Shown here in pieces: positions 1,041-63,646 of a DNA stretch of 64,000 bases. The DNA comes from a virus. Position numbers and translations under genes: made by a program. Below the pieces are notes generated by a model that saw only the letters and a program-made list of their open reading frames with translations, was not told the origin of the DNA and did no database searches. Position 1 is the stretch's first letter; each line of letters opens with the position of its first letter. The stretch is from the UHGV virus genome UHGV-0018639; one strand, written 5' to 3'.

Positions 1041-1103
1041 TATAAGTAGAAGAAATAGGTAGGGAAAGAATTAGTAAATTTTCCCATACTAAAGGAGACT
1101 TAT

Positions 1104-2564
1104 ATGTATATACATACATCTAACTTAGACGCTCAACCGCGTCGAAAATCAACATTATCGCTCGACTGGACGCTTGAAACAGCAGTCGAGCGCACAGATT
1201 TTTTGGAAACCTATTTGGCCAATCGAACCGTCCCTCTCTCCGAGTCTGACCTCGAAATGTGTGGAAACTATCTACTTTGGGGACGTGGCTCAAACGGCCT
1301 AAATGCTGAACAAGAAGGTTACGTCCAATTAGAGCGCCGCAACTCTACATGGGCCTCTAGCGCAAATACCCGCCAAGTGTCCTCAATTGAAGAACTAACA
1401 GAAAACCCAACTTTTGATGAGGCGCAATTTCACTCACTGGCCGACACAACTTATAAAACACCCAAACCAAACTTTTCACGTGAAGAATGCCTACGCAAAG
1501 CCCCGCCTGAATTCATTCCAATGCTACGGGATTTGTTTGGGCGCATTGACCGTGTTGAACTATCAATTGGGTTTTATGATAGGGCGCACGGCAAACGCAA
1601 GACAGACTTGCCTGAGCGCCTAACACGCAAGTTTTCACCCGAAGAGCTGTTTGATTTAGAAGAACGCGCGCTTAGCTGGACAAATGGTCAGTATCTCAAG
1701 AAGAAGCATCTTTTAGTGGAGCTGAGACGCGAACAATATACCATAAAGGACAGTTTTTCTAATAGTCTAATGGCACGACCCACAAATAAGTTTGTGGAGG
1801 AGGTTTCACCGACATTTTGCGGGCCAGAATCAGCGGAGGATGGATTTTTGGTTCTCCCTATTGGCTTGTCTGACTCTGCAAGACAAACGCAAGGCAAAAA
1901 CAAGTCGGTCAACTGGTTTTTAGAATTTGAGGAACTTGCCGTGAAAAAAGATGATCCGGCCTATCAAACGCAAGCCCGCAAGTTGGAGAGCCGACTAATC
2001 GAGCGAGGAATTTGTCAGCCACATAAGACAACTAAAAAAACGCAAGAACCCCAAGGAAACGCGTCTCAAAAATCGGCCATGCCATTCGGCTTTCTTACAA
2101 TTGACTTCCGCAATCCGGCCCACATTTGTAGATTGTTGGATAGCCAAAAGCTACTAATAACTGACCCCTCTCTCTCACGAGTGCGCGATACCCTTGATTT
2201 TTATATGCGGCAGGCCAATTTGACCCCCATTCAACAAAAAGTGCTTGAACTCAAACTAGCCGGTAAGCAAAATATGGATATCAAGGAAATTGTCAATAAA
2301 GAATTTGACCGCTCTTATCAGGCAAATTACATTTCCACCATTTATCGACAATACGTAGCCCCCGCAATTGCGGATGCTGCAACTCGTCATTTGGAAATTG
2401 TGCGCGCTATCGCTGAGGGGCCAGAACGTTTCAAATACTGCTCGGTCTGCGGCCGCCTGTTAGTAGAGAGCGAAACCTATTTCATACACAAGAGCCGCGC
2501 AAAATCAGGTTTTTCAGCTCGCTGTAAACAGTGTGATCATGACTATCGGCAAAGGAGAAAGTAA
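1104..2564 (+). CDS. putative transcription regulator: sigma-70 region-4-like HTH (LTPIQQKVLELKLAGKQNMDIKEI) plus C-terminal C4 zinc ribbon
   Basis: ORF track 486 aa with a strong RBS. There is a region-4-like HTH motif and a C-terminal CxxC...CxxC. The function is inferred from motifs only. Confidence 0.5.
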   Translation: MYIHTSNLDAQPRRKSTLSLDWTLETAVERTDFLETYLANRTVPLSESDLEMCGNYLLWGRGSNGLNAEQEGYVQLERRNSTWASSANTRQVSSIEELTENPTFDEAQFHSLADTTYKTPKPNFSREECLRKAPPEFIPMLRDLFGRIDRVELSIGFYDRAHGKRKTDLPERLTRKFSPEELFDLEERALSWTNGQYLKKKHLLVELRREQYTIKDSFSNSLMARPTNKFVEEVSPTFCGPESAEDGFLVLPIGLSDSARQTQGKNKSVNWFLEFEELAVKKDDPAYQTQARKLESRLIERGICQPHKTTKKTQEPQGNASQKSAMPFGFLTIDFRNPAHICRLLDSQKLLITDPSLSRVRDTLDFYMRQANLTPIQQKVLELKLAGKQNMDIKEIVNKEFDRSYQANYISTIYRQYVAPAIADAATRHLEIVRAIAEGPERFKYCSVCGRLLVESETYFIHKSRAKSGFSARCKQCDHDYRQRRK

Positions 2565-2993
2565 ATGAAAGAAAAAGAAAATAAAGTTTCTGTGAAACAG
2601 TTCCAAGAATTCTTGGACTTGTTCTCACAACTTCAAATTTATGACCTAATCGCGCTATGCCAGATTATGAGCACTCCGATGGGTTATGAAAAACAAGAAG
2701 GGGAGGAACGCGCACGCCCGCGTGAGTTAGCTGACATTTTGGAGGAAGTGATGGATAAGTTTCTAGCGCTTCCGAGGGCAAGCCGCAAAGATCTGTTGAA
2801 GGTAATGCGCGTTGCTGTTAAAAATCCATCGCCTGAACCCAAAGAATTCACAAAAATGGCAGCCGCGAAATCAGGCAGGTTAGCTACTCCATCGAACGAT
2901 TCGATTGAATGTGTTGATGGTAAATCTGCTCTACAGACTTGTCCTACTCACACGTGCAGCGTTGCCTCAAAAACAAGTGAAGGTGATACCTAA
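2565..2993 (+). CDS. hypothetical protein
   Basis: ORF track 142 aa, translationally coupled to its neighbours (ATG overlaps the previous stop). Confidence 0.55.
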   Translation: MKEKENKVSVKQFQEFLDLFSQLQIYDLIALCQIMSTPMGYEKQEGEERARPRELADILEEVMDKFLALPRASRKDLLKVMRVAVKNPSPEPKEFTKMAAAKSGRLATPSNDSIECVDGKSALQTCPTHTCSVASKTSEGDT

Positions 2994-4021
2994 TGCCCGG
3001 ACTCGGACCCCAGATGATTCGCCCACGAATTGAGACACAAACTTGTTCATGGTGCGAGTCGCTTTTGGGAAGCGATGAATTTGCTTATACAAATTCTCCT
3101 TTCTATCCTAAAAAGCGCCTTCCGATGTGTAATTCGTGCATCAAACAGTATTTGGTTGAAAAAGATTTTCAATGGGATGCTATTGATCGCATTTGCCAGT
3201 GCGCCGACGTTCCGTTCGTCCCACGAGAATTTGAGCGAGTTCACAACGAGAAAGGTGATGATTGTTTTCCCATCTACGCGGCACTTTTTGCGACCTCTGA
3301 ATATGAGGGGCTTGGATGGGACAATTATTACAAGGCTTATAAACAATTGCGCGATAACGGCCAGTTGATTGATGAGCTTCCATTGCTAGCAGAAGACAAG
3401 CGCGCAAAATTGATCGACCGATGGGGCGCCAATTATGATGATGAGGCTTTGACATACCTTGAACAACTTTATCAAGGCTTACAGGCCACACAGAATATTG
3501 CAGGTGCTCTCCAAAGCGACCAAGCCTATAAAATTTGTAAGATTTCCTATGAGATTGACTGCCGCATTAGAGAAGGCGTTGATTTTGATAAGCTGTTAGG
3601 CTCTTATGATAAGCTTGTCAAGACAGCCGAATTTACACCGAAAAATGCGAAAAATGCAGCTGACTTTGATACCACAGGGGAATTGATTAAATTCTTAGAG
3701 AAAAAAGGCTGGCGTTGTAAATATTATGATGGCGTTACAAGAGATATTGTTGATGAAACAATCAAAAACATTCAAGCCTACAACCAGCGTCTTTATACAA
3801 ATGAAAGCGGCCTTGGTGAGGAAATAACTCGTCGCATTGAAGCCCTTGAACGTGCGAAAAAACTTGAGGGCGCGGAGCAGTCTTTCGAAGAGCGTTATTA
3901 TGGTGAAAGCACGGATGTTAGCGATAATGAAGCTGACCTCTATGAAACCGAAGGCTATAAGGAGCTTCTTTCAATGGACGGCGACGATTTTGAAGCAGAG
4001 GTTGAAGGTTATGACTCCTAA
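2993..4021 (+). CDS. hypothetical zinc-finger protein; by position a possible small terminase subunit
   Basis: ORF track 342 aa with CxxC...CxxC near the N-terminus. It lies immediately upstream of, and overlaps, terL exon 1. No sequence-level evidence for TerS. Confidence 0.5.
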   Translation: MPGLGPQMIRPRIETQTCSWCESLLGSDEFAYTNSPFYPKKRLPMCNSCIKQYLVEKDFQWDAIDRICQCADVPFVPREFERVHNEKGDDCFPIYAALFATSEYEGLGWDNYYKAYKQLRDNGQLIDELPLLAEDKRAKLIDRWGANYDDEALTYLEQLYQGLQATQNIAGALQSDQAYKICKISYEIDCRIREGVDFDKLLGSYDKLVKTAEFTPKNAKNAADFDTTGELIKFLEKKGWRCKYYDGVTRDIVDETIKNIQAYNQRLYTNESGLGEEITRRIEALERAKKLEGAEQSFEERYYGESTDVSDNEADLYETEGYKELLSMDGDDFEAEVEGYDS

Positions 4022-4364
4022 GAAAATTCCCCTTTTGTTAGAGAAAAAAGAAAATATGTTCCAAGCGCCCGATCGACCCGTGCGTGATGGCATTGAGCTT
4101 GAGAAGGGAGTCGCCCTTTCAGAGCAATATTTAGAAGAACATTTAGAGGATATTGAAAATGTAATGGGTACGTTTATTGCGTATCCTGACATTTATCTTG
4201 ATACGATAGCGACAGAGAACTCACCTTCTTTGTTTTTCTATCAGCGCATTACCTTGCGTGCCATTATGAGATTTAAGGAGATATATATCTGTGCCTGCCG
4301 CGCATACTCGAAGAGCTTTATCTCAATTTTGGCAATGATATTGGAATGTATTTTTATTCCGGGT
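4011..4364 (+). CDS. terL: terminase large subunit, exon 1 (118 codons, Walker-A-like CRAYSKS region)
   Basis: The ATG at 4011 overlaps the upstream stop, with a gaagg RBS. The exon ends at U4364 (..CCG GGU), predicted from P1/P10 pairing and from alignment of IFIPG|TRRFICAPNKK with the post-Walker-A region of T4 gp17. ORF track 3837..4400 reads on into the intron. Confidence 0.7.
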
Positions 4365-5584
4365 AAAATGTGTGCCCCCTTACTTCGTGAGGAGTATTGA
4401 ATAAGTTATCTTAAAGCTGGAAAACCGTAAAGTCTCTTATACCTTCAGGGTGCTTCTCTCAAAAAGGTTGCGAAAGTAGAAACAAATAAGAGAATGGCAT
4501 AAGGTGCAAACCTAAGTGCTGCTAATTGGCAATCAGCGACTAAAATAGAAAAAGGAGTATTTATAATGAGTGCAAAGAAAAAGACACATGAACAGTTTGT
4601 AAAGGATATTATAAATAAATATAATATACAAAAAGAGGATTTTACCTTTTTATCAGAATATCAAGGTTATGATAAGCCTATTATTTTTCAATGCAACAAA
4701 TGTGGAAAAATAAAGACTATTGTGGCTGGAGCTTTGCTAAGGACTTCGTCTCATAAAAAACACATATGTCCATGCTACGGTTACGCTCAAGAATGGCACG
4801 AAGAAAATCAATTTTTGCGAATTTGGATAAAAAAGCAATCTAAATATGATATAATAAAATATACTCCGGGGCTTTTAGAAATTCAACTAAAATGCAAAAA
4901 ATGTGGGACTTTTCAAAAACGCTCGGCTAAAAGTTTAGAGAAAAATGATGAGTGTTTGGGCTGTGAGAACAAATGTAATATTAAGAAACCGCAGCAAGTA
5001 TTTGAGCAAGAATTGAAAAATTTCTGTGGAGAAGAATATCAATTAGTTGGAGATTATAATGGATCTGATAACTATTGTCTATTGAGGCATACTCTTTGTG
5101 GGAAAATTTATCGAGCTAAGCCTCATTATCTTCTAACAGGAAAAGGCGGAACTTGTCCTATTTGCCAAATAAAATCAAAAGGAGAAAAAGTAATTGCTGC
5201 TTTTCTTGATAAAAAAAATATTGTTTACTATACACAATATAGATTAGATGAATTTCGGCGTGCACCATATGATTTCTTTTTACCAGACCATAATTTATTA
5301 ATTGAATTCCAAGGCACTCAGCATTTTCAGCCAGTTCCGCGTTTTGGAGGAGAATTGACTTATCAACGACAAAAAGAAGTTGATGAAAAAAAAGTAGAAA
5401 TAGCTAAAAAAGAAAATAAGCAACTACTCATTATAAATTACAATCAAATCGATGAAATAGAAACTATTTTAGCTCAACGACTATCCCTTTATGGGAGTAG
5501 CAATGATATTATTGCGAAACGATAACTATCTCTTAGGAGATAAAGATATAGTCTAATCTTATATGAAAATATAAGTCTTTTTTG
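4365..5584 (+). mobile_element. group I intron (1220 nt) interrupting terL, carrying a homing endonuclease ORF in the P8 region
   Basis: P-like ggttgcgaaag (4466-4476), Q-like ggtgcaaacc, R element tcagcgactaaaa (4534-4546), S element aagatatagtct (5540-5551), a P9 hairpin with GAAA loop, and terminal G5584. P1 is gggU(4361-4364):Gccc(4374-4377). P10 is acacg(5585-5589):ugugu(4369-4373). Splicing gives an in-frame 602-aa TerL. Confidence 0.7.
4566..5525 (+). CDS. intron-encoded homing endonuclease candidate: zinc-finger repeats plus C-terminal Vsr/DUF559-like PD-(D/E)xK motif (PYDFFLPDHNLLIEFQGTQH)
   Basis: ORF track 319 aa with its own RBS (aaaggag). It sits between the intron R and S elements. 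There are multiple CxxC pairs and a C-terminal motif resembling Vsr-like endonucleases. Confidence 0.65.
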   Translation: MSAKKKTHEQFVKDIINKYNIQKEDFTFLSEYQGYDKPIIFQCNKCGKIKTIVAGALLRTSSHKKHICPCYGYAQEWHEENQFLRIWIKKQSKYDIIKYTPGLLEIQLKCKKCGTFQKRSAKSLEKNDECLGCENKCNIKKPQQVFEQELKNFCGEEYQLVGDYNGSDNYCLLRHTLCGKIYRAKPHYLLTGKGGTCPICQIKSKGEKVIAAFLDKKNIVYYTQYRLDEFRRAPYDFFLPDHNLLIEFQGTQHFQPVPRFGGELTYQRQKEVDEKKVEIAKKENKQLLIINYNQIDEIETILAQRLSLYGSSNDIIAKR

Positions 5585-7039
5585 ACACGAAGATTTATTT
5601 GTGCCCCCAACAAAAAACAAGGCGCACAAATAGCTAAAGAAAAGATAAATGAAATTTATGACAAGTGGCCTCTTATAAGGCGAGAAGTGGTAAGAGGCGA
5701 TATTGACCCAATGCCGGGAAATTTTGGTTCAGATTATGTCAGCTTGACATTTCGTAACGGCTCTACATTTGAAGTTTGTGGTGCGTTGGAAAGCACCCGT
5801 GGATTGCGTAAATATGGTGGTTTGATAGATGAGATTCGTGACCATGAGGAACAGCCGATAAGTGAAATTGTCCTTCCTCTTCTCAATGTTTCACGCCGTC
5901 TTCCTGATAACACTGTAAATCCACGTGAACCGAACCAACAAACAATTTTTGCTACAAGTGCGGGCACTAAGATGTCATTTGCATATGACAAACTCATCTC
6001 GGTTTTTGAAAACTCAATAATTCTACCGAATCAATCATTTACATTCGGCTGTGACTATAGAGTCCCAATGATGCACGGACTTGTAGACCGTAAATACATC
6101 AACAATTTAAAAATGGACCCCTCTTTCAACGAAGAAAGCTTCGCTCGTGAATATATGTCCTTGTGGAGCGGGGCTTCTGACGAAAGTTGGTTTAATTTTA
6201 GCAAAATGGAAAAACATCGTAAAATAAAAAACCCAGAATTTCATGCGAATTTTAGAGCTGGAGTCAATCAATTCTACTTTATTTCGGTAGACGTAGCAAG
6301 ACTGGCCGGCTGTCAAACTGTTGCGTGTGTTTTTCGTGTAAATATTAGAAATGATAGATATTATGCAACGCTTGTAAATGTTATTGTACTTGGTAAGCAA
6401 ATGGAACTAAAAACATTTACTCAACAAGCAATTGATCTCAAAAAACTTATTAGGGACTATAAACCAAAAGAGTGTCTTATAGATACAAATGGTTTAGGTG
6501 TTGGCCTTGCCGATGAAATGATAAAAGTCCATTATGATGAACACGGTGAAATGCTTCCAGCATATGGTTTCTTCAATGATGACTCTTATAAAAAAGTACA
6601 GCCAAAAGACGCTATTTGTATCTTATATTCAATGAAAGCCAACGGCCCATTGAATAGTGAAATACATGGGACAACATATGCCCGCATAAATGGCGGTATG
6701 ATTCAGTTTCTAATAAAAGAGCAGGATGCGAAAATTGCTTTGCTCGCTACAAAGGTAGGACAGAAGATGAGTATTGAACAGCGCGTCAAGCGACTTATGC
6801 CGCATGAAATGACATCGAGCCTTTTTGAAGAAATGGCAAATCTTCGTTTGAAAAGAACAGGCTCTGGCACTGATATAGTGCTCGAACAAATCAATACTCG
6901 ATTCCCTAAAGATAAATATTCTGCTTTTTCCTATGGTGTTTGGCGTATCAAACAATTAGAGGATGAAGCAACTAAAAAGCGTCGGCGCCGCACACCCGGT
7001 GTAAAGCGCCAACTAACCTTTTTTTCAGGAGGTCGCTAA
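5585..7039 (+). CDS. terL: terminase large subunit, exon 2 (ATPase Walker B LIDEIRDHEE, motif III TSAGT, nuclease domain)
   Basis: ORF track 5582..7039. Walker B and the coupling motif are visible. Exon 2 starts at A5585 after terminal G5584. Confidence 0.85.
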   Translation, partial: TRRFICAPNKKQGAQIAKEKINEIYDKWPLIRREVVRGDIDPMPGNFGSDYVSLTFRNGSTFEVCGALESTRGLRKYGGLIDEIRDHEEQPISEIVLPLLNVSRRLPDNTVNPREPNQQTIFATSAGTKMSFAYDKLISVFENSIILPNQSFTFGCDYRVPMMHGLVDRKYINNLKMDPSFNEESFAREYMSLWSGASDESWFNFSKMEKHRKIKNPEFHANFRAGVNQFYFISVDVARLAGCQTVACVFRVNIRNDRYYATLVNVIVLGKQMELKTFTQQAIDLKKLIRDYKPKECLIDTNGLGVGLADEMIKVHYDEHGEMLPAYGFFNDDSYKKVQPKDAICILYSMKANGPLNSEIHGTTYARINGGMIQFLIKEQDAKIALLATKVGQKMSIEQRVKRLMPHEMTSSLFEEMANLRLKRTGSGTDIVLEQINTRFPKDKYSAFSYGVWRIKQLEDEATKKRRRRTPGVKRQLTFFSGGR

Positions 7040-26693: not shown

Positions 26694-29600
26694 ATGCTTT
26701 TACGAGAATATGAAATTAGTGTTTGGGAGGATATACTCTCAGACGATAAAACAACATATAATGAATATCCGATTGCAGTCATTGGATCTAATACAATGAC
26801 TAGTGATTGTGCCGCACAAGACGCTCATTTCAATAAAAAGACGACAGGCGAATATACTCTTAGTTTCATTTTATATACGCAATATTTTGACAAAACTGAA
26901 GGCATTTTTGTTGATAACCCTTTCATCAAATTGCTTGTCAATGAACGGAAGATTAAACTTCACTATAAAGATCAGTGGTATGATTTTGTTATAAAGAGTA
27001 TTGTTGAGGATTCTGATGGCAAAAGCTATACTTATACAGCGCAAGCTTTGTTTATCAATGAGCTGTCTAAAAATGGCCTTGATATTGTTTTCAGTATTGA
27101 GAAAGAAAATTCAATTGGTAATATAACTACACTCGCAGCTGAGGCTTTGAAAGGCACAGATTGGAAAGTCTCTGATGAGTCTGATTTATTACGTCAAACT
27201 ATAATTGAGCCATTGTATGTGTTGACAACCACATCAGTTATTACCGCGAAAAATCTTTTAAATCGAAACGCATCTAGTGTTTCCATCCCCGCGGGTTCAA
27301 TTATTTATGGATTCTACTCTTGTGTAATAAATAAAGACCCATTTTTTCAGTTTCTCTATCGAGATGATGGCGCTTACACAATCGACACGGATACTGGCGC
27401 GATAACAAATAGCACAAACTGGTATATAGATAATGTATCTTACTCGAACAGTGAGGGCACTCCTTCTTTCTGCAAAAATGAAAAAGCAATTAGTATTGAT
27501 TATCGTGGCAAGAAATATATTCGCTCTACTACCAATTTTTATGACTCTAAAGTCGATGAATATATAACTGTTTATGAGGACGCCGCTGGAGAAGAAATTC
27601 GTGGTTTTACGAAAACAGAATATTTGTCTCCGACTTTTACTCAAAATTTGGTGACAAATTCCTCTAATTTTGAAAGTACAACTGGTTGGGATAAAGAAGG
27701 TTCATCTTACGTCCGCTCTTTGTTTCATCCGCCACTCGTTGATTCAGATGGAAATGATCTAAAGGGCCAAGATCTTATCAACGCATTGGCTACTTCAAAA
27801 CTTACTTTACAGTTTGACTTACAGAGCGGCGAGCGCTTTCACAATAGTGGTTTAGTTGATAATAGAAAATTATTTGTTAAAAATGGCATAGCCAGCGATG
27901 AACGATATGTCTTACGTATAAAACTTAGCAAAGATTCAACAGCAATTTCTCATTTGAAAGGTTTCGTTGCTTTCTATGATGGGATGACAACAGATGGAAA
28001 GTATAATATACAAAAGAACGGTTCGACTGAACTTCACATTTTTGATTTTTCTTTCATAGGAAGTACCGTCGATTCTGATGGGTACTATATACAAAGTGCT
28101 AGCGCGAATCAAAGTGTGACTTATCAACAAATGTTGACAGGTACTTTAGGTTTATTCTTTCAAACCGATATTGCAGGCACTTACATATTTGAACAGATTG
28201 ATTTCTTTAAATATTATAGTCAGGATGGAAAAATTCTTTATCCCGAAAGTGTGCCAAGTGCTGAGGCACAAACCGTTTATTATTACTATAGCCCTAGCAA
28301 AAACATAAATGCAACATCATCCGATGAAATTAAATATGAATATGTCGGCGCATCACCTTGTATTAACTATGTTGTCAAATATGACGAAAATTGCGAAAAA
28401 CGACGCTCTTATGAGACGGAAAAAACAAATCGTTTTAATATCCTACAAGATCTCGCGGAGTTGTTTGAGTGCTGGGCTGATTTCGTTATAGAGCACAATG
28501 AGGATGGTTCTGTTAAAAAAGATGCTAATGGAGTGCCACAGAAGTATGTAATTTTTCGCAACTATATTGGTGTTGAAAACTTTGCGGGTTTCCGCTATGG
28601 CATCAACCTCCAATCAATTGAGCGCACAGTTGATAGTGACCAAATTTGTTCTAAGATTGTTGTCGAAGACAACGATAATGAGTTCGCCACTGATGGCTAC
28701 TGTTCAATTTCGCGTGCAGTTGATAATCCAACTGGTGAGCTTTTCTTCTATGATTTTCGTCACTACTATACACAAGGCTTATTGAACTACAATGAACTGA
28801 TGAATGATCTTTATCTTGAAGTTGATCCGTGGCTTGGTTATTATGTCAAGATGAAGCACATTAATCAGAACCGCCAAGCGCTCCTTGAGGAAGCGTCTGC
28901 GATTGCGAACTCAATGAATAATTTGTCGGCATCAAGCCAGACTTATTATTTAATATACACAGAAGCAAGCACTCAGTTAAATGATAAAAAGCAAGAGCTT
29001 GCTAATTATCCTCCTGCAAAAGGGTATAAATATGAGGATTTTATCAAAAATCCAGTGACAGATAAATACGTTATTTCCTTAATAGAGCATGACCCTGAGA
29101 TTATAGGAATTATAACGACAATCGCAGTTCTTGAGCGGCAAGTTGAACAGAATAAAAAATTTTATGATACTTATAAGGAAGCCTATGATGTGGCTCAAGC
29201 TCGTTATAAAGAGATTCAGGAAAACCTTGAATCTTCAAAAGCTCAAAAAGAGGCTCTTAACAAAAAATTCTATGAGAAGTATTCACGCTTTATTCAAGAA
29301 GGCTCTTGGACAAGTGAGGACTATCTTGATGATAATCTCTACTACTATGATGCGGCAGCTACGCTTGCTGAATCAGCAAATCCGCAAATTACTTATTCAA
29401 TTAGCGTAATTGACATTGGCTCTCTTGATGGGTTTGAGAGCTATACTTTCAATCCGGGCGATAAGACTTACATTGAAGATACGGAATTCTTCGGTTATGT
29501 TTATATTGATGGTGTAAAGACTCCTGTTCAAGAAGAAATTGTCGTAAGTGAAATTGATGTTGTTTTAAATGACCCATCACAAGACACAATAACCGTTCAA

Positions 29601-55891: not shown

Positions 55892-56135
55892 CGTGTAATC
55901 CCTTGTTTCCAAGGGCACTGACTATTTCTTACATATGTAAAACATATGAATACCCATTTCGGGCGGCGTACCAATAGCCGTCCTACTTCTCCGATTCGAG
56001 AATAGTCGATACAGGTTCCTTGTCGTATGACAAGTCTTCCCACGAGATTAGCATATCTTTCGACTTAGCTTTCCTCGTTAGCCGCGAATGCGACCCCACT
56101 GGTAAGTGGAAAAGGTATAACGGGCCAATTCCTCA
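55892..56135 (-). ncRNA. small ORF-less group I intron (~244 nt) in the recJ-like gene
   Basis: - strand: exon 1 ..GAU UAC GUA CAG GGU(56136) then an in-frame UGA, and exon 2 CAC GCU AAU GCA GCU GGG, give ..DYVQG|HANAAGF (DHHA1 motif). R-like guaucgacuauuc (rc of ~56006-56018). S-like aagaaauaguca (rc of ~55919-55930). P9 is cccuug-gaaa-caaggg, then terminal G 9 nt later. P1 is gggU:Gccc (4 bp). Confidence 0.6.
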
Positions 56136-57383
56136 ACCCTGTACGTAATCAAATAAACTAGTATCTAACAAATAATCCTTGAACGACGTAAGCGCGCTCT
56201 GTGAAAGACCTCTAATACTTCCCTTTATCATTCCATCGGGGCCTTCGCGGCCTATCATTGTAGGCTTATGATACCGCGCGCTAAGCTGTGTTGCAATCAA
56301 ACCATTCAACTCAGGCGGGAAGTTATCATCGTCATCAAGTTTTACAAATAAAATTTTGTTTTCAAGTAAATCATACTTATGTATCTTATACTCAAGTTGC
56401 TCAGTTGCTTTTTCTTTTGCTTTATCTTGGTGCGACTTCGCGTTCGTACATTCGCGTGCACTTTCGATTGCAAGCTTTTCAAGAGTCCCCTTCGCACCAC
56501 GCTTGCCGCTAGGCACAAGTTCCTCACCAGCAACAACTGCACGATAGAGACGTTTTTTCTCATCTTGTGAACCTACACGTATCATTGCGTTGATAAGCGG
56601 CGTTATGTAAAATGCGACAGTTGTTGGATTGACCTCGCCGCCCATTGAGTAGGACTGCTTTTCAACAAGAGTTTTGAGGAAAAAGTTTCGTATGTTGGCA
56701 CAACCTTGCTGGACAATGAACTGATTTTCGTATGATAGCATACTTACCATATCACTTATAATACCCAACGCCGCTAAGTCAATATATTCCCAAGCCCAAT
56801 TATGGCCAAACGCATCATCAAGCGCACGGCAGAACTGCCACACGACACCAGCGCCGCACAGGTCTTTGTTCTGATAAGCGGGGCTTGTCTGATTGTTTAT
56901 TAGAATCATATTAGGCGGAATTTCGCTTGTGGGTTCTAATTCGTGGTGGTCGATGCAGAGCACGGGACAGTCTAACTGTTTGATATACTCACCATCGTTA
57001 GTTCCCGCGTCCGGGACTATGACACCGCTCCAACTATGTTCAAGCAACTTATCCATCACATCACTACAACCGTGCTGTTTGCCGCTGTGTATTATCTGTA
57101 TAATATGCTTTACGGGATTGAGTCGCTTTATGTATTGATAAATAATGCCGCTTGACGTCAAGCCGTCCGCATCACAATCACAAATTAGCCCCAGTGGATT
57201 TTCATCATTCAAGTTTTGTCTGATAAAATCAATACCTTCATCTATATTATCCAGCGCGCGGTAACTCTGTAAGCACGACTCATCAGGATTCAAGAACAGA
57301 TCAACGTCTTCAATTCCTCTCAATCGTAAAATTTGTTCTCCATAGTTTTCATATATTCCATCGTTTGTCAATTTATATTTCAC
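56136..57383 (-). CDS. recJ: RecJ-like DHH phosphoesterase/exonuclease, exon 1 (DCDADGLTS, IDHH motifs)
   Basis: ORF track 56133..57383. DHH motifs I-III are visible. Confidence 0.7.
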
Positions 57384-58426
57384 TGCACTTTTACCCTCCT
57401 GCGTAGCAGTTCTCGGAAAATTTCTTCGCCCCTATCGGTAGGGCTGTCTTTTGGCTCTGTCAATCTATCTCTATCATAAATAAAGGAAAAATTGGTTAGT
57501 TTACTATATTTTTTACACATTGCATAGAGTTTATTAAAGTAAACATCTTCGCCGGGTTTTTCTTCGTTGTCAAAGCAAAGAACAACTTCATCAGGACGCC
57601 CAACTTTGATAATTTCGCGCATGGCCCACTTGTTTAGATGAGAGCCGCACACAGCAACAGAGCAGTTATTCATATTAAACCCCTCTTGCTGAAGCACTGA
57701 CTTCTCTCCCTCAAAAATATAGCAGATATGACTCCGCTTTATCTTTTGTTTATTTTGATAAAGTCCATATGGGTTCAGCGAAAGTGGATGACTATACCAA
57801 ATTCCTTCAACTTGAACTGGCATATACTTACCTACATTCTCAACTTCCCATTGATTGAGCGCACGTCCTCTTATTCCAACGAGTTCGCCCTTTATATTAT
57901 AATGAGGAATTATAATTTTGTTTTGGCTTATTGAATAGCGAATGTCAAACTTATCCATTGCCTCTTTTGTAATTCCATCGTTCAACCATTCAGGTGAATA
58001 AAACTTTGTGAATACATCAAGGACGTGCTTATCATAGACTTTCAATTCTTTCGGCTTTTGCGGCTTGTATTTATCTCGTTCACTGACATATGGTTCTACC
58101 AAAGACGAACGCTCAGCTATTGAGTAAGTAGAACAATTTATTGCAGGAAGTAAAATATCATTATGCCAATCATACAAAATGTTTCTTGTATCATAGTAAT
58201 GCTTCAAAAAACTAAAAATTGACATATTGCCGCACTCACTATAACAAACAAATAGATGAGTGTCAAAGTAATAATACAATTTTGGGCTTCCTTCGTGCGC
58301 ATTATGACAAATTGTTGTGCAGACTAAACAATTGTCCTTTCTTTGAACATCGCCGCTAAGTTGTCGGAGTAGATTTTCTACTCCATCTGGCGTTAGTCCT
58401 TTTACAATACCTTCATAGTCAATCAA
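57380..58426 (-). CDS. dnaG: DNA primase (DnaG-like: CHC2 zinc finger + TOPRIM IFEGEKSV...DNEE)
   Basis: 348 aa with zinc-binding C..C..H..C..C and TOPRIM acidic motifs. Confidence 0.65.
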   Translation of the reverse strand: MIDYEGIVKGLTPDGVENLLRQLSGDVQRKDNCLVCTTICHNAHEGSPKLYYYFDTHLFVCYSECGNMSIFSFLKHYYDTRNILYDWHNDILLPAINCSTYSIAERSSLVEPYVSERDKYKPQKPKELKVYDKHVLDVFTKFYSPEWLNDGITKEAMDKFDIRYSISQNKIIIPHYNIKGELVGIRGRALNQWEVENVGKYMPVQVEGIWYSHPLSLNPYGLYQNKQKIKRSHICYIFEGEKSVLQQEGFNMNNCSVAVCGSHLNKWAMREIIKVGRPDEVVLCFDNEEKPGEDVYFNKLYAMCKKYSKLTNFSFIYDRDRLTEPKDSPTDRGEEIFRELLRRRVKVQ

Positions 58427-59978
58427 TCTTATTCAACCTTTCTATCAATTCACTTATTTCGTTCGATTCACTATCATCCCAATTATAGACTTCAATATCA
58501 TTTACGACAAAATCATCAAGCGGTTCCAGCAAAGAATTTGTGATAAACAAATCTTTCTTTTTCAAACGCCCCAAATCAACATATGACCAAATACGTGTTT
58601 GCGTCCATCGGCCACTTCTTAACTTATATACGTCCGCAACTTGGTTTGGCGTTCCATACATACTAATGAAATTGTCTTTTAGAATTAGTAGCTCATCATT
58701 TGTTGGACGCGACATAATCAAACCATTATCTGCTTTATTGATAATCGCACGGCTGCCCGCGAGAGAAGATTCGTTTCTTATATCTTTATTATCATCAGCT
58801 TTCGCATTTACTTGTGTCGAAGTAAAAACCGCAACATTCAATTCAACAGCTAAATTTTTTAGTGCGGTTGTCATAAATAAAAGTAATTCATCATTTCGAA
58901 GTGCTGTCCCTTTGAATTCATTTACCAACGAAGGACTTATAAAGATATAGTCATAAAACACAACATCGACTTCGTTTATAATACACTGGTCGCGCACAAC
59001 TGCATTTATGAGTTCAATCGTCGGCTCAGGCATACGTATGACAATGAAATTCTTTTCGTATTGTTTCATTACTTCAAGAGCTTGCTTGATAATGCGCCGT
59101 TCTGCCTCATCAAAGTTTGCATATCGGAACCTGTCTTCGTTAATATCGGTAAGATAGGCTAAAACCATTTTCTGAATTTCTTTTTTCTGCTGCTCAGTTA
59201 TGATGAACAAAATTCTTTGCGTATTTCCGCACTGAATCCATTTGCCATTTTCTGTGTTATAACGAACAGGATAGGCAAGATAACAAGCATCCATTACTGC
59301 AGTACGCGTCTTGCCAAGGCCGCTACCCGCAGAACGGACTGTCAAAGTCCCTTTTAACGCGCCATTCATTATTTCATTACAAATCGCCCCCTGTATCGGA
59401 TAGCCAATTTCTTCTGTTGAGCCAAAACTTTCGACCAGTTCTTCAATACCATCAGCGAGACTTTCAATTTCAACTTCTTCACCAGCCGCATATTCACTTT
59501 CCAAATGAATAAGTTGTTTTTTCAACCCCTTAATAATATCTTGCGGCGTCAGTTCCTTGAACCGCTCATTTATCTCAGTCGCGCGTGGAGCCGTTAAATC
59601 TTTTTCATAGAATGATTTGACACTATACCCTTGCTTTTCAAGGTCAGTCATTAGATTGAACTTTTTGAGCTGATTATAATAAAACCCAAAGTTCTCTACG
59701 TCGGCCAGCTCAATCAAGTCCTGAACTCGTTCGAGTCCATTCGCCTGTTCAAACAAAGACTTTGACATTGGATCTTGCCCAAAAACACCTTCAATATCTA
59801 TTGGCCTTATCTTAGGAGCACCGCCTGTGTATAACATATAAATGGCTTTGAAGACACGCCTATCAAACTTATCCTCAAAGTCGAGTGGCGTCAGTGAATA
59901 TTTGTCCGTTTCATTCAACAGTTTGGGCTGAAGTATCAAACCGCCAAGAACTTGATTTATAGAAGTGCGGTCAGTCAA
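58419..59978 (-). CDS. dnaB: DnaB-like replicative helicase (Walker A SAGSGLGKT)
   Basis: 519 aa with an N-terminal DnaB-like domain and a RecA-fold ATPase with Walker A/B. Confidence 0.65.
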   Translation of the reverse strand: MTDRTSINQVLGGLILQPKLLNETDKYSLTPLDFEDKFDRRVFKAIYMLYTGGAPKIRPIDIEGVFGQDPMSKSLFEQANGLERVQDLIELADVENFGFYYNQLKKFNLMTDLEKQGYSVKSFYEKDLTAPRATEINERFKELTPQDIIKGLKKQLIHLESEYAAGEEVEIESLADGIEELVESFGSTEEIGYPIQGAICNEIMNGALKGTLTVRSAGSGLGKTRTAVMDACYLAYPVRYNTENGKWIQCGNTQRILFIITEQQKKEIQKMVLAYLTDINEDRFRYANFDEAERRIIKQALEVMKQYEKNFIVIRMPEPTIELINAVVRDQCIINEVDVVFYDYIFISPSLVNEFKGTALRNDELLLFMTTALKNLAVELNVAVFTSTQVNAKADDNKDIRNESSLAGSRAIINKADNGLIMSRPTNDELLILKDNFISMYGTPNQVADVYKLRSGRWTQTRIWSYVDLGRLKKKDLFITNSLLEPLDDFVVNDIEVYNWDDSESNEISELIERLNKID

Positions 59979-60550
59979 TCTTCATCATCCTCCATTGAAT
60001 AAGTCTTGCGGTTGTTCTTCTTTTTCGGAGCGGACTGCCGCACAATCTGTTTCTGCATTTCAGCTTGCTTCTTTGCCTGCTCTTCAATTCGCTTTATGAT
60101 ATCACTATCGCGCTGGTTCTGTTGCTTCCAATATTCGCGTGAATCATCATAAACATAATCTACGATTCCAATCGCACCATTAGAACGTTCAATTGAGTTT
60201 TTCTTTACGTCGTAAAAATAAACCAGCGCAAAATAAATACCTTTTGGAGTGCGTTTCTTTTTGAGATTCGATTGCCACTGCTTGTCAAACAACGGATAAT
60301 TGACAGCTATCTTCAAATGATTTTTCAAAAAGTAATATGTGCTATTCTTCCATTCTTCATCTGAAGCTGTATCTGTAATTTTCTTGCCTTTTCTCAGCTC
60401 CATTGCTTTTGGATAACATTCGGTGTGATAAAACCACTTTGTCGGACTTTCAATCCACGTGTCTTCTGGCACGACATTTCTGTCAAACTTTTCGTGGCAA
60501 TAGCGGCACTCGACTTCTCTCTTTGGATATTTTAACTGTGTTTTTGCCAC
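59975..60550 (-). CDS. hypothetical protein with N-terminal CxxC..C..C zinc-binding region
   Basis: ORF track 191 aa with a Lys-rich C-terminus. Confidence 0.5.
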   Translation of the reverse strand: MAKTQLKYPKREVECRYCHEKFDRNVVPEDTWIESPTKWFYHTECYPKAMELRKGKKITDTASDEEWKNSTYYFLKNHLKIAVNYPLFDKQWQSNLKKKRTPKGIYFALVYFYDVKKNSIERSNGAIGIVDYVYDDSREYWKQQNQRDSDIIKRIEEQAKKQAEMQKQIVRQSAPKKKNNRKTYSMEDDED

Positions 60551-60600
60551 TTTCTCACTCCTTTCATATATAAATATTATATCACAATTTTTTTAAAAAG

Positions 60601-60640
60601 TCAAATTAGAAAAAGGCGACTACAATATAAAGTAGTCGCC
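60601..60640 (-). terminator. rho-independent terminator (- strand)
   Basis: Hairpin ggcgactac-aatataaa-gtagtcgcc, followed on the - strand by a U-run (rc of tcaaattagaaaaa). Confidence 0.65.
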
Positions 60641-60660
60641 CGTGAGCAGTTATACAATAT

Positions 60661-61118
60661 TTAGTTGCTCTTCTCCTTGAGAAGGTCTTCCATTTCAAGA
60701 TTGACAAGATTGAGCAAATCAACTTGATCTTCAGTGGCTTCGCTGAGCTTCATCGGATGACCAAAAACCATTTCGATCTTTTTGGAAATACGACGAGCCA
60801 TATCAGCATCGGCATTTTCGCCTGTGCCGACAAGCTTGACCCAAAGGTCTTGCGCGTGGTTGCGAACAGTTATGTAGTTAAGAGCTTCCTCACTCTTGAT
60901 TATAACATTATCCACCGCAGAACCGCCGCTCACTTCAATCTCCTTATCTATTGCGCGACCTACCGCGTCTTCAAGATAAGAATAACCAAAAGGAAGGACA
61001 GGGTCAAGGAAACGATATCGACTACCCGCGGTAATAGTGGGAGTAGCGCGAGTTATCAAGTGTCTTTCCCAGCCTGTTTTGTCATTCCACTCTTTAGTAA
61101 TGACGCCTATAATATCAA
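60661..61118 (-). CDS. Sak4-like (AAA_24) ssDNA-annealing ATPase, exon 2 (approximate 5' boundary); ..FDIIGVITKEWNDKTGWERHLITRATPTITAGSRYRF..
   Basis: ORF track 60661..61059. The frame is open upstream to the homing endonuclease stop at 61156. The exon 2 start is placed at ~61118 by homology reasoning and is uncertain by a few nt. Confidence 0.5.
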
Positions 61119-62191
61119 CACATTTTGTTATCGTAAAGCTTTTTATCTTTACTTCTTACTCTTGATTTTGAGCAAGTTCAGCATATCTTTTTTCCTCTTC
61201 TCCAGAGGAATAGAGTCTCGTGGATTTTATATCATAAAAGTTTTTCATTGCTTGATATTTTCTTTCCATATAAATAGAATTGGGCACATACAGAATCTCA
61301 AAAAGTCTTAAGATAGTGTCTTTTTTATAAACTTGTATTGTATAAAAATGGTCGCCTTGACTGAGCGTCGCTGTGCTGGTCGAAAGAGAGGTAATAATAC
61401 CATATTTATTCAGAAGAACTTGCCGCATCCATTCAATAACTTCTTTTCTTGCTCCACAAATATACCAATTATAATGATATTTTTTATAATCAGTCCAAAT
61501 ACATCCATCTCCATCAAAATATCCTCGAATATAAGAGATAAAATATTGTTCATCAAGAAAAGTCGGCGGTGTTAGAGTAAAAGTTTTACGAGGTATTATT
61601 CCATAATGGGCTAAATCTTGTTTGATAGTATGACTACAAACTCTTAGCCGGCTATACTCACAACCTGAATTATTTGTATAATGCTGAATAGGTCCCTCAT
61701 ATTTTAGTTCTTCTTTTATCTTATACAATATTTCTTCATCGGATCTTTGAATATCTATTGTAAAATGATTCGTATCTTTTGATACTCCGCCATCGGAAGC
61801 TAAAAATCCAAGAATATAAGCCATATTATGAGATTGTATCTTGAAATAATCGTCATTAACATTATAAGCTCGACATTCTTTTGCAGCTTCTTGCCGATTA
61901 CGAACCTTTACTCCCCATTTTTTCAAGTATCTTTGAATTGTCGCTCCTGAAGCTCCTCCAACATCTCGGCCAATAGCATTTACGCCTCTTTTTAGAACTG
62001 TATAATTATAAATTATAAATTCTTTTTGTTCATCTGTAAATGAAATAGATTTACCCACTCTGGGTTCCTCCTTTTATGTTTATCAATCTATGCGTTGCGC
62101 GTGTCGGAACTTTTACACTCCGACTTCCGCTCTGATTCCCATCTCAGGGTTCCAGATTTTTACTCTAATTTAGATATTTGTTTCCAAATAA
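61119..62191 (-). mobile_element. intervening sequence (probable group I intron, boundaries approximate) in the Sak4-like gene carrying a LAGLIDADG homing endonuclease ORF
   Basis: The N- and C-terminal halves of a Sak4-like ATPase flank the homing endonuclease gene. U/G-rule-compatible splice pairs exist: U62192 with G61119, or U62191 with G61121. The core shows P/Q-like variants aaucuggaac and gaaucagagcgg. No canonical R/S was found and P1 was not convincingly identified. Confidence 0.45.
61156..62058 (-). CDS. LAGLIDADG homing endonuclease (LGFLASDGGV and IRGYFDGDGCI) with N-terminal HTH
   Basis: 300 aa with RBS aaaaggagg. It is in the same frame as downstream exon 2 but separated by its own stop. 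Confidence 0.8.
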   Translation of the reverse strand: MGKSISFTDEQKEFIIYNYTVLKRGVNAIGRDVGGASGATIQRYLKKWGVKVRNRQEAAKECRAYNVNDDYFKIQSHNMAYILGFLASDGGVSKDTNHFTIDIQRSDEEILYKIKEELKYEGPIQHYTNNSGCEYSRLRVCSHTIKQDLAHYGIIPRKTFTLTPPTFLDEQYFISYIRGYFDGDGCIWTDYKKYHYNWYICGARKEVIEWMRQVLLNKYGIITSLSTSTATLSQGDHFYTIQVYKKDTILRLFEILYVPNSIYMERKYQAMKNFYDIKSTRLYSSGEEEKRYAELAQNQE

Positions 62192-62729
62192 ATGTCCCAT
62201 TGAGACTATTGACAACTTTTAGGCATCTAGGATTGAGGTCAGGTTTATACCCAACTATAGTTCCCTTATCATCAACTTCCTCTTTCAAATGAGAAGTCAA
62301 AATAAGACCATAACCAAGCATTGTAATTCTGCGAAGAGTGCGCTCAAATTCTTGAGACAGAGACTTATAACCTGCGCCATAAGGAATGTCACCAATCTTC
62401 TGAACGCCAGCCTGTGCACAAATATACTGTTCGCACAAATCCCAAGCAATGGCAACTGTATCAAAACATATCGTCTTATACATTTGCTTTGCTTCAGGTT
62501 TTTCAAGCTGGCGGCAGATGATTTTACAATCACTCCATTTTTCAATGGGCTGAATCATTGCTCCCGGACGAGCATTAGTGCCCATCTCAAAAGCAAGAAT
62601 TAAAGAATCCTTCGCAGTTGTGCAAAATTCCGTTTTTCCGATCTTAGGCTCTCCAGCAAGAAGCACATACTTGCCAGACAAATTTCTCGGAACAACGCTC
62701 GGTTGAATAGATAATATATCAATAGCCAT
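62192..62729 (-). CDS. Sak4-like (AAA_24) ATPase, exon 1 (Walker A LLAGEPKIGKT), approximate 3' boundary
   Basis: ORF track 62160..62729. The last ~10 codons of the ORF track are probably intron-encoded. Confidence 0.5.
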
Positions 62730-62743
62730 AGGTCAAGGCCTCC

Positions 62744-63646
62744 TTAGAAACCGAGGTCAAGACCCATAGACGCAGTGGAAGAAGCTTGAGCGGGCGCCTT
62801 ACGCTGTGCAGCACGAGCACGGCCATTGGCTTTCTGCTGCTCCTGACGTTCCTTTCTCTTATTGAGGCCTGCGCTTATCTCTTCAAGAGTCCAAGCTTTA
62901 TCACCGTCAAGTGGAGTCGGACAGCCACCAGTGATAACAAGCTCACTCAAATTCAGAGTGCGAGTTTCCTCGTGCGGCTCACCGAAGCCCGGATTGACTA
63001 TCTCAGTGCGAACAGTGGAGGTAAAGTTCAGGCGACCTTCAGCTGCAACACAATCATTCTCCTGCCAATATTCGCTTATTGCCGCGCGAACATTCTCGCT
63101 CTTAACAATAAACGGAATGACATCAACAGTATCGCCCCAGCCGGGGACTACGCCACGAATTATCATATTACCAGTCTCAATGCCTTCCTTATCAAGCTCA
63201 GGAGACATATTAGCCAACATCATCTCAATAGAGAAATCAGCTTTAGGCTTCATTTCATCCTTACGCACAACATTAACAAAAGATGCTTGAATCTGAGGAT
63301 AAGAAATCATAGAAGAGCCATCCTGAGACGGATATTCATTCATAGAAATCTTGCCAGTCAGACGGACACGAGTTGCGTCAGCCTCACCAACCTGCGCAAT
63401 ACTATGCATTTCATCAAGAATACGCTGAACAGATGCATATGCAGGATTAGCATTACCATCACGCTTGGTCTTATTTGCAAACAGCTTTACAGGGATTTCA
63501 AGAAGTCCCTCTTTGCTATTGACTCTTATCTTTATAGAACCACCAAGATACTCAGTGGTGCGGCCGTCCTTTTCAAAAGAGCCATTCTTCAGGTCAGTTT
63601 CACTCAATATTCCTTCAATATATACTTTATTAGTTGCTTCTCTCAT
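62744..63646 (-). CDS. putative ssDNA-binding protein (partner of Sak4; acidic/Gly C-terminal tail ..MGLDLGF)
   Basis: 300 aa with RBS aaggag. Its position is adjacent to the Sak4-like gene. No direct motif proof. Confidence 0.35.
   Translation of the reverse strand: MREATNKVYIEGILSETDLKNGSFEKDGRTTEYLGGSIKIRVNSKEGLLEIPVKLFANKTKRDGNANPAYASVQRILDEMHSIAQVGEADATRVRLTGKISMNEYPSQDGSSMISYPQIQASFVNVVRKDEMKPKADFSIEMMLANMSPELDKEGIETGNMIIRGVVPGWGDTVDVIPFIVKSENVRAAISEYWQENDCVAAEGRLNFTSTVRTEIVNPGFGEPHEETRTLNLSELVITGGCPTPLDGDKAWTLEEISAGLNKRKERQEQQKANGRARAAQRKAPAQASSTASMGLDLGF

Follow-up and report, generated by a model that had tools for sequence, protein, structure and literature searches.

The minus strand of the viral genome UHGV-0018639, analysed here as a stretch of 64,000 nucleotides (nt; hereafter the window), contains at positions 62202 to 61121 an insertion that is very probably a mobile, self-splicing group I intron of the IA-like type, residing in the Sak4/YorG-like ATPase gene of an SPbeta-like phage. 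The boundaries of the insertion were located to the nucleotide, its secondary structure was established by covariation among relatives, alleles with and without it were found, and nearly identical copies occur in host genes that have diverged from each other. Mobile group I introns with homing endonucleases have long been known in phage genes of DNA metabolism, and the biology described here is conventional. New are the host gene, not previously noted for group I introns, and a widespread lineage of introns that is missed by standard annotation.

Uninterrupted homologues of the ATPase were found in a protein collection, among them P0001 (328 amino acids (aa), 98% identical). All 11 aligned uninterrupted homologues read (N/G)(S/G)L-VD(I/V)IGV at the position of the break, for example ...KVVNSL-VDIIGV... 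or ...KIVNGL-VDIIGV..., and 'NGTF' occurs in none of them. The DNA that encodes P0001, contig L001 from another metagenome (ENA ERZ28634339 scaffold_33240), is an intron-less allele. It reads AATAGTCT directly followed by TGTTGATATT (complete site: AAAGTTGTCAATAGTCTTGTTGATATTATAGGCGTC) and consists of exon 1 through U62203 continued by the window sequence from U61120 on; sliding of the junction leaves no ambiguity. The computationally spliced window and L001 align over 2,002 nt with zero gaps. Because of this intron-less sequence the insertion is assigned to 62202-61121, with splicing after U62203 and G61121. Since the last nucleotide of the 5' exon is U and that of the insertion is G, the boundaries conform to the rule for group I introns. 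At the predicted junction ...AAUAGUCU is joined to UGUUGAUAUU..., which creates the codons AGU CUU GUU GAU and a corrected product of 328 aa that reads ...NSL-VDIIGV... and differs from P0001 in a single residue. The first-pass annotation, made from the letters of the window, had placed the insertion at 62191-61119, which according to L001 is 11 nt off at the 5' end and 2 nt off at the 3' end; of the 3' ends it proposed, the second choice, G61121, was right and the first, G61119, was wrong. Its splice pairs U62192/G61119 and U62191/G61121 were rejected, as they predict NGTF(V)DIIGV where the homologues and L001 have NSL-VDIIGV. The 'NGTF' residues are intron-encoded read-through. A chance origin of the observation is excluded by the presence of this insertion at an identical position in further phage contigs and by the exact recurrence of a 25-mer from the 5' core, CTGGAACCCTGAGATGGGAATCAGA, in 47 stretches of IMG/VR.

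The reading frame of exon 1 runs 14 codons into the intron and ends at UAA 62162-62160, within the P3/J3/4 segment of the fold described below. No in-frame start codon or ribosome-binding site is present at the homologous boundary of exon 2 before TTG 61059, the first in-frame start, which is 20 codons in and lies downstream of the conserved VDIIGVITKEWNDKTGWERH segment. The two halves must therefore be joined by splicing. It could be argued that the interruption is a free-standing homing endonuclease gene between two independently translated Sak4 halves, without RNA splicing, which would resemble the split nrdA/mobE arrangement of phage Aeh1. The endonuclease gene is indeed equipped with a Shine-Dalgarno sequence and a start codon of its own, and exon 1 meets a stop codon soon after the break. 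However, apart from the missing start of exon 2, the sequences that flank the endonuclease form a covarying group I fold, the U...G boundary rule is obeyed, the guide sequence matches the exon, and some versions of the same element that lack the endonuclease open reading frame (ORF) also interrupt genes, all of which makes a split gene very improbable. The first-pass annotation had observed that the endonuclease and exon 2 share a reading frame, and reading of the frames confirmed that the endonuclease frame continues into exon 2 with its own stop codon as the sole interruption. No special cause is needed for the shared frame, because the ORF extends across the ribozyme core's 3' half and ends within P9.

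LAGLIDADG endonucleases are also carried by inteins and, in rare cases, by group II introns. The insertion is nevertheless extremely improbable as either of these, since stop codons in the host frame occur from 62162 on, the 1,082 nt are not a multiple of 3, and the roughly 180 nt outside the ORF are too few for a group II intron. Rfam searches, run on the whole window at the gathering score, on 60900-62400 at E ≤ 10 and on the relatives at E ≤ 1, yielded no group II match for this lineage, and the structure has a group I fold.

The elements of the fold are listed in Table 1. In P1, the uridine at the splice site forms the wobble pair U62203•G62198. The exon AGUCU and guide GGGAC of the window are replaced in two relatives at the same site, the IMG/VR contigs L006 and L007, by exon GGCCU and guide GGGGC, a compensatory change from U:A to C:G. 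Contiguous P10 and P1 guides that match the exons were found by a simple search at most other insertion sites of the family. The loop of P2 is GAAA in the window, GUGA in L007 and GUAA in L006, and it is a GNRA loop in most relatives. Compensatory changes affect 5 of the 6 pairs of P3 across 25 relatives and, in the family, 4 of the 5 pairs of P7.1, 4 of 7 in P9 and 7 of 7 in P9.1; at the place of P7.1 the ORF-less members have a hairpin of 22-45 nt. The closing pair of P7, beside the bulge, covaries from A:U to G:C (CAACGCAUAG/UAUGCUG versus CAGAGCAUAG/UAUGCCG). The second pair, G62093/C61181, is an invariant G:C (A[C]G-C-A-U-A/U-A-U-G-C-U), the bulged nucleotide is C or A, and the G:C pair beside the bulge is presumed to be the guanosine-binding site. 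A member of the family in phage phiCD211 displays covariation in P4 (CGG/CCG) and P5 (GGC/GCU), and members of the family share the conserved terminus GAUAAC-N(3-6)-G. ORF-less elements are built in the order P1, P2, P3, J3/4, P4 (CUG/CAG), P5 (CCC/GGG), P6, P6a, P7 and P7.1, followed by CCACGAG, P3', P8, J8/7 (AAAAGA), P7' (UAUGCU), P9, P9.1 and the tail GAUAAC-N-G. In many of them (e.g. L010, 6566+) the P7.1 loop reads UGAAAAGAUAUAAU, which repeats the J8/7-P7' string AAAAGAUAU(GC) located about 50 nt further downstream; the repeat might have been left behind when the ORF was lost, or it might act as a functional mimic.

The P- and Q-like variant strings seen in the first-pass annotation are the two strands of P4. 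Its statement that R and S elements and a convincing P1 are missing did not hold: P1 is present as GUCU^C/GGGAC, the R-like element as GCAACGCAUAG and the S-like element as AAAAGAUAUGCUG. P1 and the S element were overlooked because of the wrong boundary and because the S-like element lies inside the endonuclease ORF. Two structures drawn in the course of the analysis were discarded. P3 had been drawn as AUCUA/UAGAU right after P7, and the ORF-less relatives place its true 3' strand after CCACGAG; a hairpin AUAGAUU/AAUCUAU that would hide the ribosome-binding site of the endonuclease is broken in L006 (A x C).

Table 1. Coordinates of the intron, its structural elements, its ORF and the flanking exons in the window
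Feature	Position	Strand	Description
Group I intron, 1,082 nt	61121-62202	-	starts CAAUGGGAC, ends GAUAACAAAAUG, omega-G is G61121; placed by intron-less L001, family covariation and R1 (covariance model built from the family)
P1	62194-62206	-	5' strand GUCU^C (62206-62202), splice after U62203; loop AAU; guide GGGAC (62198-62194)
P10 guide CAAUG	62198-62202	-	just 5' of and overlapping the P1 guide; complements the exon-2 start UGUUG (61120-61116)
P2 hairpin UAUUUG-GAAA-CAAAUA	62175-62190	-	GNRA tetraloop
P3 5' strand UUAGAGU, then J3/4 AAAAAU	62162-62168	-	pairs with 61216-61211
P4 (CUGG/UCAG, 3-4 base pairs) and P5 (CCC-UGAGAU-GGG)	62131-62155	-	contains the P-/Q-like strings of the first-pass annotation
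P6 (GCG/CGC) and P6a (GUCGGAG/UUCCGAC)	62099-62130	-	internal loop; compensatory changes in 3/3 pairs (P6) and 6/7 pairs (P6a)
R-like element GCAACGCAUAG	62099-62089	-	includes P7 5' strand
P7 5' strand A[C]GCAUA	62089-62096	-	one bulged nucleotide; pairs with 61185-61180; pseudoknot with P3
P7.1 5' strand GAUU	62085-62088	-	pairs with AAUC 61226-61223; endonuclease ORF in hairpin loop
LAGLIDADG endonuclease ORF, 300 aa, double motif	61156-62058	-	GTG start; Shine-Dalgarno AAAGGAGG at 62074-62067
P7.1 3' strand AAUC, joiner CCACGAG (61223-61217), P3 3' strand ACUCUA (61216-61211)	61211-61226	-	
P8 hairpin UUCCUCU-GGAGA-AGAGGAA	61192-61210	-	compensatory changes in 7/7 pairs in the family
J8/7 AAAAGA and P7 3' strand UAUGCU	61180-61191	-	together the S-like element
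S-like element AAAAGAUAUGCUG	61191-61179	-	within the codons for EKRYAE of the endonuclease
P9 (CUUGCUC...GAGUAAG) and P9.1 (GUAAAG-AUAAAAAG-CUUUAC)	61133-61176	-	P9 contains the endonuclease stop codon
3' tail GAUAACAAAAUG	61121-61132	-	ends in omega-G G61121; junction from L001
Exon 1, Sak4/YorG-like AAA_24 gene	62203-62729	-	ATG 62729; Walker A GEPKIGKT; 3' end ...AAU AGU CU
Exon 2, Sak4-like gene	60661-61120	-	5' end U GUU GAU AUU = (L)VDI...

Support for the structure was obtained by aligning 25 distinct cores with MAFFT after the P7.1 loop had been trimmed and by counting the drawn structure on the alignment; the set had been retrieved with the 25-mer, which covers P4-P5. Standard pairs occupy 93.7% of the cells versus 34-45% when the 3' partners are slid, compensatory changes on both sides occur in 37 of the 54 pairs, and the covariation score is 0.498 compared with 0.07-0.10 in controls; none of 500 shuffles reached the observed values. 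P3, P4, P5, P6, P6a, P7.1, P9 and P9.1 were yielded independently by RNAalifold. The element thus combines a P1 with U•G, an omega-G, P10 and a covarying P3-P8 core with a P3/P7 pseudoknot.

In the mechanism proposed for the intron, the pre-mRNA would fold into P1-P10. Exogenous guanosine held at the G:C pair of P7 would attack after U62203, which would be positioned in the U•G wobble by the guide GGGAC. The guide CAAUG would then align exon 2 in P10, omega-G61121 would be swapped into the guanosine site, and the exons would be ligated to the message for the 328-aa protein. The loop of P7.1 carries the independently translated endonuclease, which presumably cuts intron-less alleles at AATAGTCT^TGTTGAT, whereupon repair would copy the intron into the cut allele (homing). 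The catalysis of splicing, the junction in vivo, the endonuclease's activity and its target site are predictions drawn from the structure and the comparative evidence.

Evidence for mobility comes from relatives at the same site. An identical endonuclease resides in the same gene of three other contigs (L003-L005). In L003 and L005 the intron differs from that of the window at 2 of 1,082 nt (99.8% identical), and the exons are only 92-95% identical to those of the window, the first exon mismatches lying 38 nt from the site on its upstream side and 27 nt on its downstream side. A near-identical intron in diverged exons is what recent homing would be expected to produce when co-conversion tracts are short. 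The intron-less L001 and the low GC content of the intron, 33% compared with 43% in the exons, likewise point to recent homing. Both intron differences (62119, 62109) together form a compensatory pair in P6a, A:U to G:C. More diverged Sak4-like genes, in L006 and L007, have endonucleases at the same site that are 88-89% identical.

L001 and the spliced window (63730-60648) are 96.3% identical overall. Around the site, from -534 to +267, they do not differ at all, and beyond this tract, which begins almost exactly at the gene start, a mismatch occurs about every 15-20 nt. This distribution would fit a very recent gain of the intron, or its precise loss, in an otherwise identical allele of a mosaic genome. 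The Sak4-like gene of L006 (IMGVR_UViG_3300013383_000002, 1092-5640) consists of four exons and three paralogous LAGLIDADG introns of the lineage, i1 at 1373-2611, i2 at 2858-3935, which corresponds to the site in the window, and i3 at 4041-5286; their 5' and 3' cores are conserved among them. Five further contigs (L009, L017, L034, L037, L042) have members of the family inserted in similar ATPase genes at the codons for Walker A; in L009 there are two ORF-less copies, separated by 373 nt.

Several observations weigh against a mobile, self-splicing group I intron. P1 is short, with 4 exon pairs and 1 intron pair, and P4 comprises just 3-4 base pairs. Since the relatives were picked out by a 25-mer that spans P4-P5, they show no variation in P4, P5 and most of P7; support for these parts comes from geometry, one pair of P7 and the single phiCD211 sequence. 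The Rfam model RF00028 (Intron_gpI) had no match in the window at the gathering score, nor at E ≤ 10 in the intron region. Exon 2 shows purifying selection among strains that carry the intron, but as an argument for splicing this is weak and is given little weight, since the divergence of the exons mostly predates the recent spread of the intron. Finally, splicing and endonuclease activity are deduced from comparisons rather than from RNA. The intron might accordingly have decayed and be defective in splicing, in which case the Sak4-like gene would be inactivated and only an N-terminal fragment of 189 aa be made. With this possibility the short P1 and P4, the negative Rfam searches and the indirect evidence for splicing would be in accord, and since the intron arrived recently, decay of the exons may have lacked the time to become apparent. 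Arguing against decay is the finding that every core helix is intact in the copy of the window and that its sole polymorphisms relative to L003 and L005 are the compensatory pair in P6a. Moreover, L006 and L007, which have diverged by about 10%, retain the structure through compensatory changes and have intact host reading frames, and in comparison with these two the non-coding RNA core is better conserved than the synonymous sites of the endonuclease ORF. A defective intron is therefore considered improbable, and a splicing-competent group I intron is the favored reading.

The first-pass annotation had correctly recognized an AAA_24/Sak4-type gene on the minus strand that is split by a LAGLIDADG endonuclease gene. 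The 300-aa ORF between the halves matches Pfam LAGLIDADG_3 with 49.6 bits (cut-off 22.5) and also PHROG 4645, and contains the motifs YILGFLASDG (aa 81-90) and YIRGYFDGDG (aa 176-185). No close solved structure was found for it, the best PDB match having an E value of 0.28. Its last ~24 codons (...STRLYSSGEEEKRYAELAQNQE and the stop codon) double as P7.1', CCACGAG, P3', P8, J8/7, P7' and P9. Codon differences between the window and L007 are synonymous in 86 cases and non-synonymous in 32; the endonuclease is under purifying selection.

Exon 1 belongs to an ORF of 189 aa (62729-62160, minus strand) with the N-terminus MAIDIL...LLAGEPKIGKT that matches positions 3-156 of the 195 positions of Pfam AAA_24 (E 4.6e-32). 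The frame past the endonuclease stop codon encodes ...VDIIGVITKEWNDKTGWERHLITRATPTITAGSRYRF... and matches AAA_24 weakly, at positions 158-195, the last 38. When the halves are joined, a comparison that the first-pass annotation had proposed, the match covers 3-195 of 195, Walker A included, at E 3.4e-38. The near-identical, uninterrupted P0001 matches PHROG 124, 'Sak4-like ssDNA annealing protein' (E 6e-44), and is 29% identical to SPbeta YorG over its full length. Gene callers assign three unrelated ORFs of 189, 300 and 132 aa to this gene, the correct product of which is a single protein of 328 aa. On the minus strand of the window at 56133-63646 the gene order is YorF-like, Sak4/YorG-like (split), YorH-like, DnaB/YorI-like helicase, YorJ-like and DHH/RecJ (YorK)-like. 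This order matches the yorF-yorK replication and recombination module of SPbeta, and the window therefore comes from an SPbeta-like phage. This phage is known from metagenome assemblies, of which at least one is a gut assembly. Of the GenBank phage records, 196 have a homologue, and every match listed among them is single and uninterrupted. Apart from one incidental co-mention, a full-text search retrieved no paper that links group I introns to Sak4 genes.

From the IMG/VR stretches 33 distinct introns were extracted, among them ORF-less versions of about 330 nt that represent the uninterrupted ribozyme. RF00028 matched neither L006 and L007 nor, at E ≤ 1, the ORF-less members L009, L010, L011, L020, L038, L055, L059, L074, L078 and L084. 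In two of the same contigs it does find canonical group I introns (L011, 3624-3845, 94.5 bits; L038, 5531-5787, 81.9 bits), and two or more intron lineages therefore coexist in these phages. The failure of RF00028 marks a limit of the reach of the model and not the absence of an intron; recognition by this model is not a defining feature of group I introns. The covariance model R1 detects both halves of the intron in the window (61978-62173, 95 bits; 61127-61242, 89 bits) and no second copy within its 64 kb. On the canonical RF00028 introns R1 scores weakly, with 24 bits in L038 and 16 bits in L011.

Among GenBank phages, neither megablast with the intron locus nor blastn with the 5' core returned a match, and an ORF-less relative used as query gave partial matches only, at 65-83% identity. 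The 25-mer has no exact match in 185,579 species-representative genomes. With a looser pattern for the 3' core 31 loci were obtained from such genomes, and R1 identified 16 full-length members above 130 bits in bacterial genomes, mostly of Bacillaceae (Neobacillus, Metabacillus, Aquibacillus, Peribacillus and others). One ORF-less member (L059, R1 174 bits) in Thalassobacillus pellis (NZ_JAFBDO010000002.1, locus 3249-3488) divides two long ORFs of a ribonucleotide reductase-like gene directly after ...VVATNPCG. Another full-length ORF-less member (L055, R1 106 bits) is that of the cultured Clostridium (C. difficile) phage phiCD211 (LN681537.2, locus 2323-2572, record ~28612-28861). It is unannotated and is flanked by the coding sequence (CDS) of a 'minor tail protein' and by a misc_RNA annotated as Intron_gpI; the tape-measure CDS lies downstream. 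The arrangement suggests that a single tail gene, annotated as two genes, contains two introns in tandem. Neither of the two phiCD211 elements was reported by Rfam 15 at E ≤ 1. In Exiguobacterium phage vB_EauM-23 (MH844558.1) two halves of the family element, detected by R1 (1997-2185, 2741-2875), flank an annotated HNH endonuclease gene and sit between the CDSs of the 'terminase large subunit' and the portal; probably the element interrupts the terminase gene, whose annotated CDS would then be truncated.

The intron resembles the IA introns with endonuclease ORFs of other phages (T4 td/nrdB/sunY, Twort, SPO1 and the Bastillevirinae introns of PMC11878797) in its conserved host gene of DNA metabolism, its self-splicing type, the U•G pair of P1, omega-G, the P3/P7 pseudoknot, a further helix inserted between P7 and P3', a peripheral loop that contains the endonuclease ORF and the signature of homing. 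It differs from them in the Sak4/YorG-like host gene, the short P4 and the lack of detection by RF00028. In subgroup IA, P7.1 plus P7.2 are the extra helices between P7 and P3'; the window family instead has one P7.1 hairpin followed by CCACGAG, and no second hairpin that would correspond to P7.2 was found in the family. The RF00028 consensus has the same helix order and similar strings, AAUC..CAG (Q), CAACG.CUA/CAUAG (R) and AAGAUAU.G (S), but P4 of the lineage is 2-3 base pairs shorter, and no member tested reaches E=1. The atypical core and divergent subgroup postulated in the first-pass annotation were thus borne out in part: the architecture is ordinary and IA-like, with P7.1 between P7 and P3', whereas P4 is short and RF00028 misses every member tested. 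SPbeta itself (Bacillus phage SPBc2), a phage of the same type, has annotated introns in bnrdE and bnrdF, one with an endonuclease (yosQ) that is HNH and not LAGLIDADG, and its yorG is uninterrupted. The bnrdE/bnrdF introns were considered as members of the lineage and dismissed, as R1 gives no match in the nrd region of SPbeta. Group I introns are common in phages, and the loop that encodes the nuclease often splits the ribozyme (PMC11878797). The endonucleases of phage introns are dominated by HNH and GIY-YIG, unlike the LAGLIDADG endonuclease of the window, the introns of Bastillevirinae mostly resemble IA2/IA3, and the variety of introns in phages may go beyond the current subgroups (PMC11878797).

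A tentative reading of these data, to which we give distinctly less than even confidence, is that the introns constitute a coherent, unannotated lineage characterized by a short P4, a single P7.1 that hosts the ORF, the CCACGAG joiner, a P9.1 with an AUAAAAA loop and invisibility to RF00028. Such a lineage would be common in gut-virome contigs and in mostly Bacillota genomes, with at least some of the copies probably in prophages, and would colonise genes for Sak4-like recombinases at several sites, a single gene holding as many as three introns. Were it also to fall outside the GISSD models for IA1-IA3, it would count as a new subgroup. If the reading is correct, genome annotation systematically misses phage introns. 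RF00028 overlooks a whole lineage of phage and bacterial group I introns, including the phiCD211 and Thalassobacillus copies, and the number of phage introns is therefore underestimated. The genes they split are probably mis-annotated as fragments. Either R1 or the 25-mer provides a simple way to find these introns.

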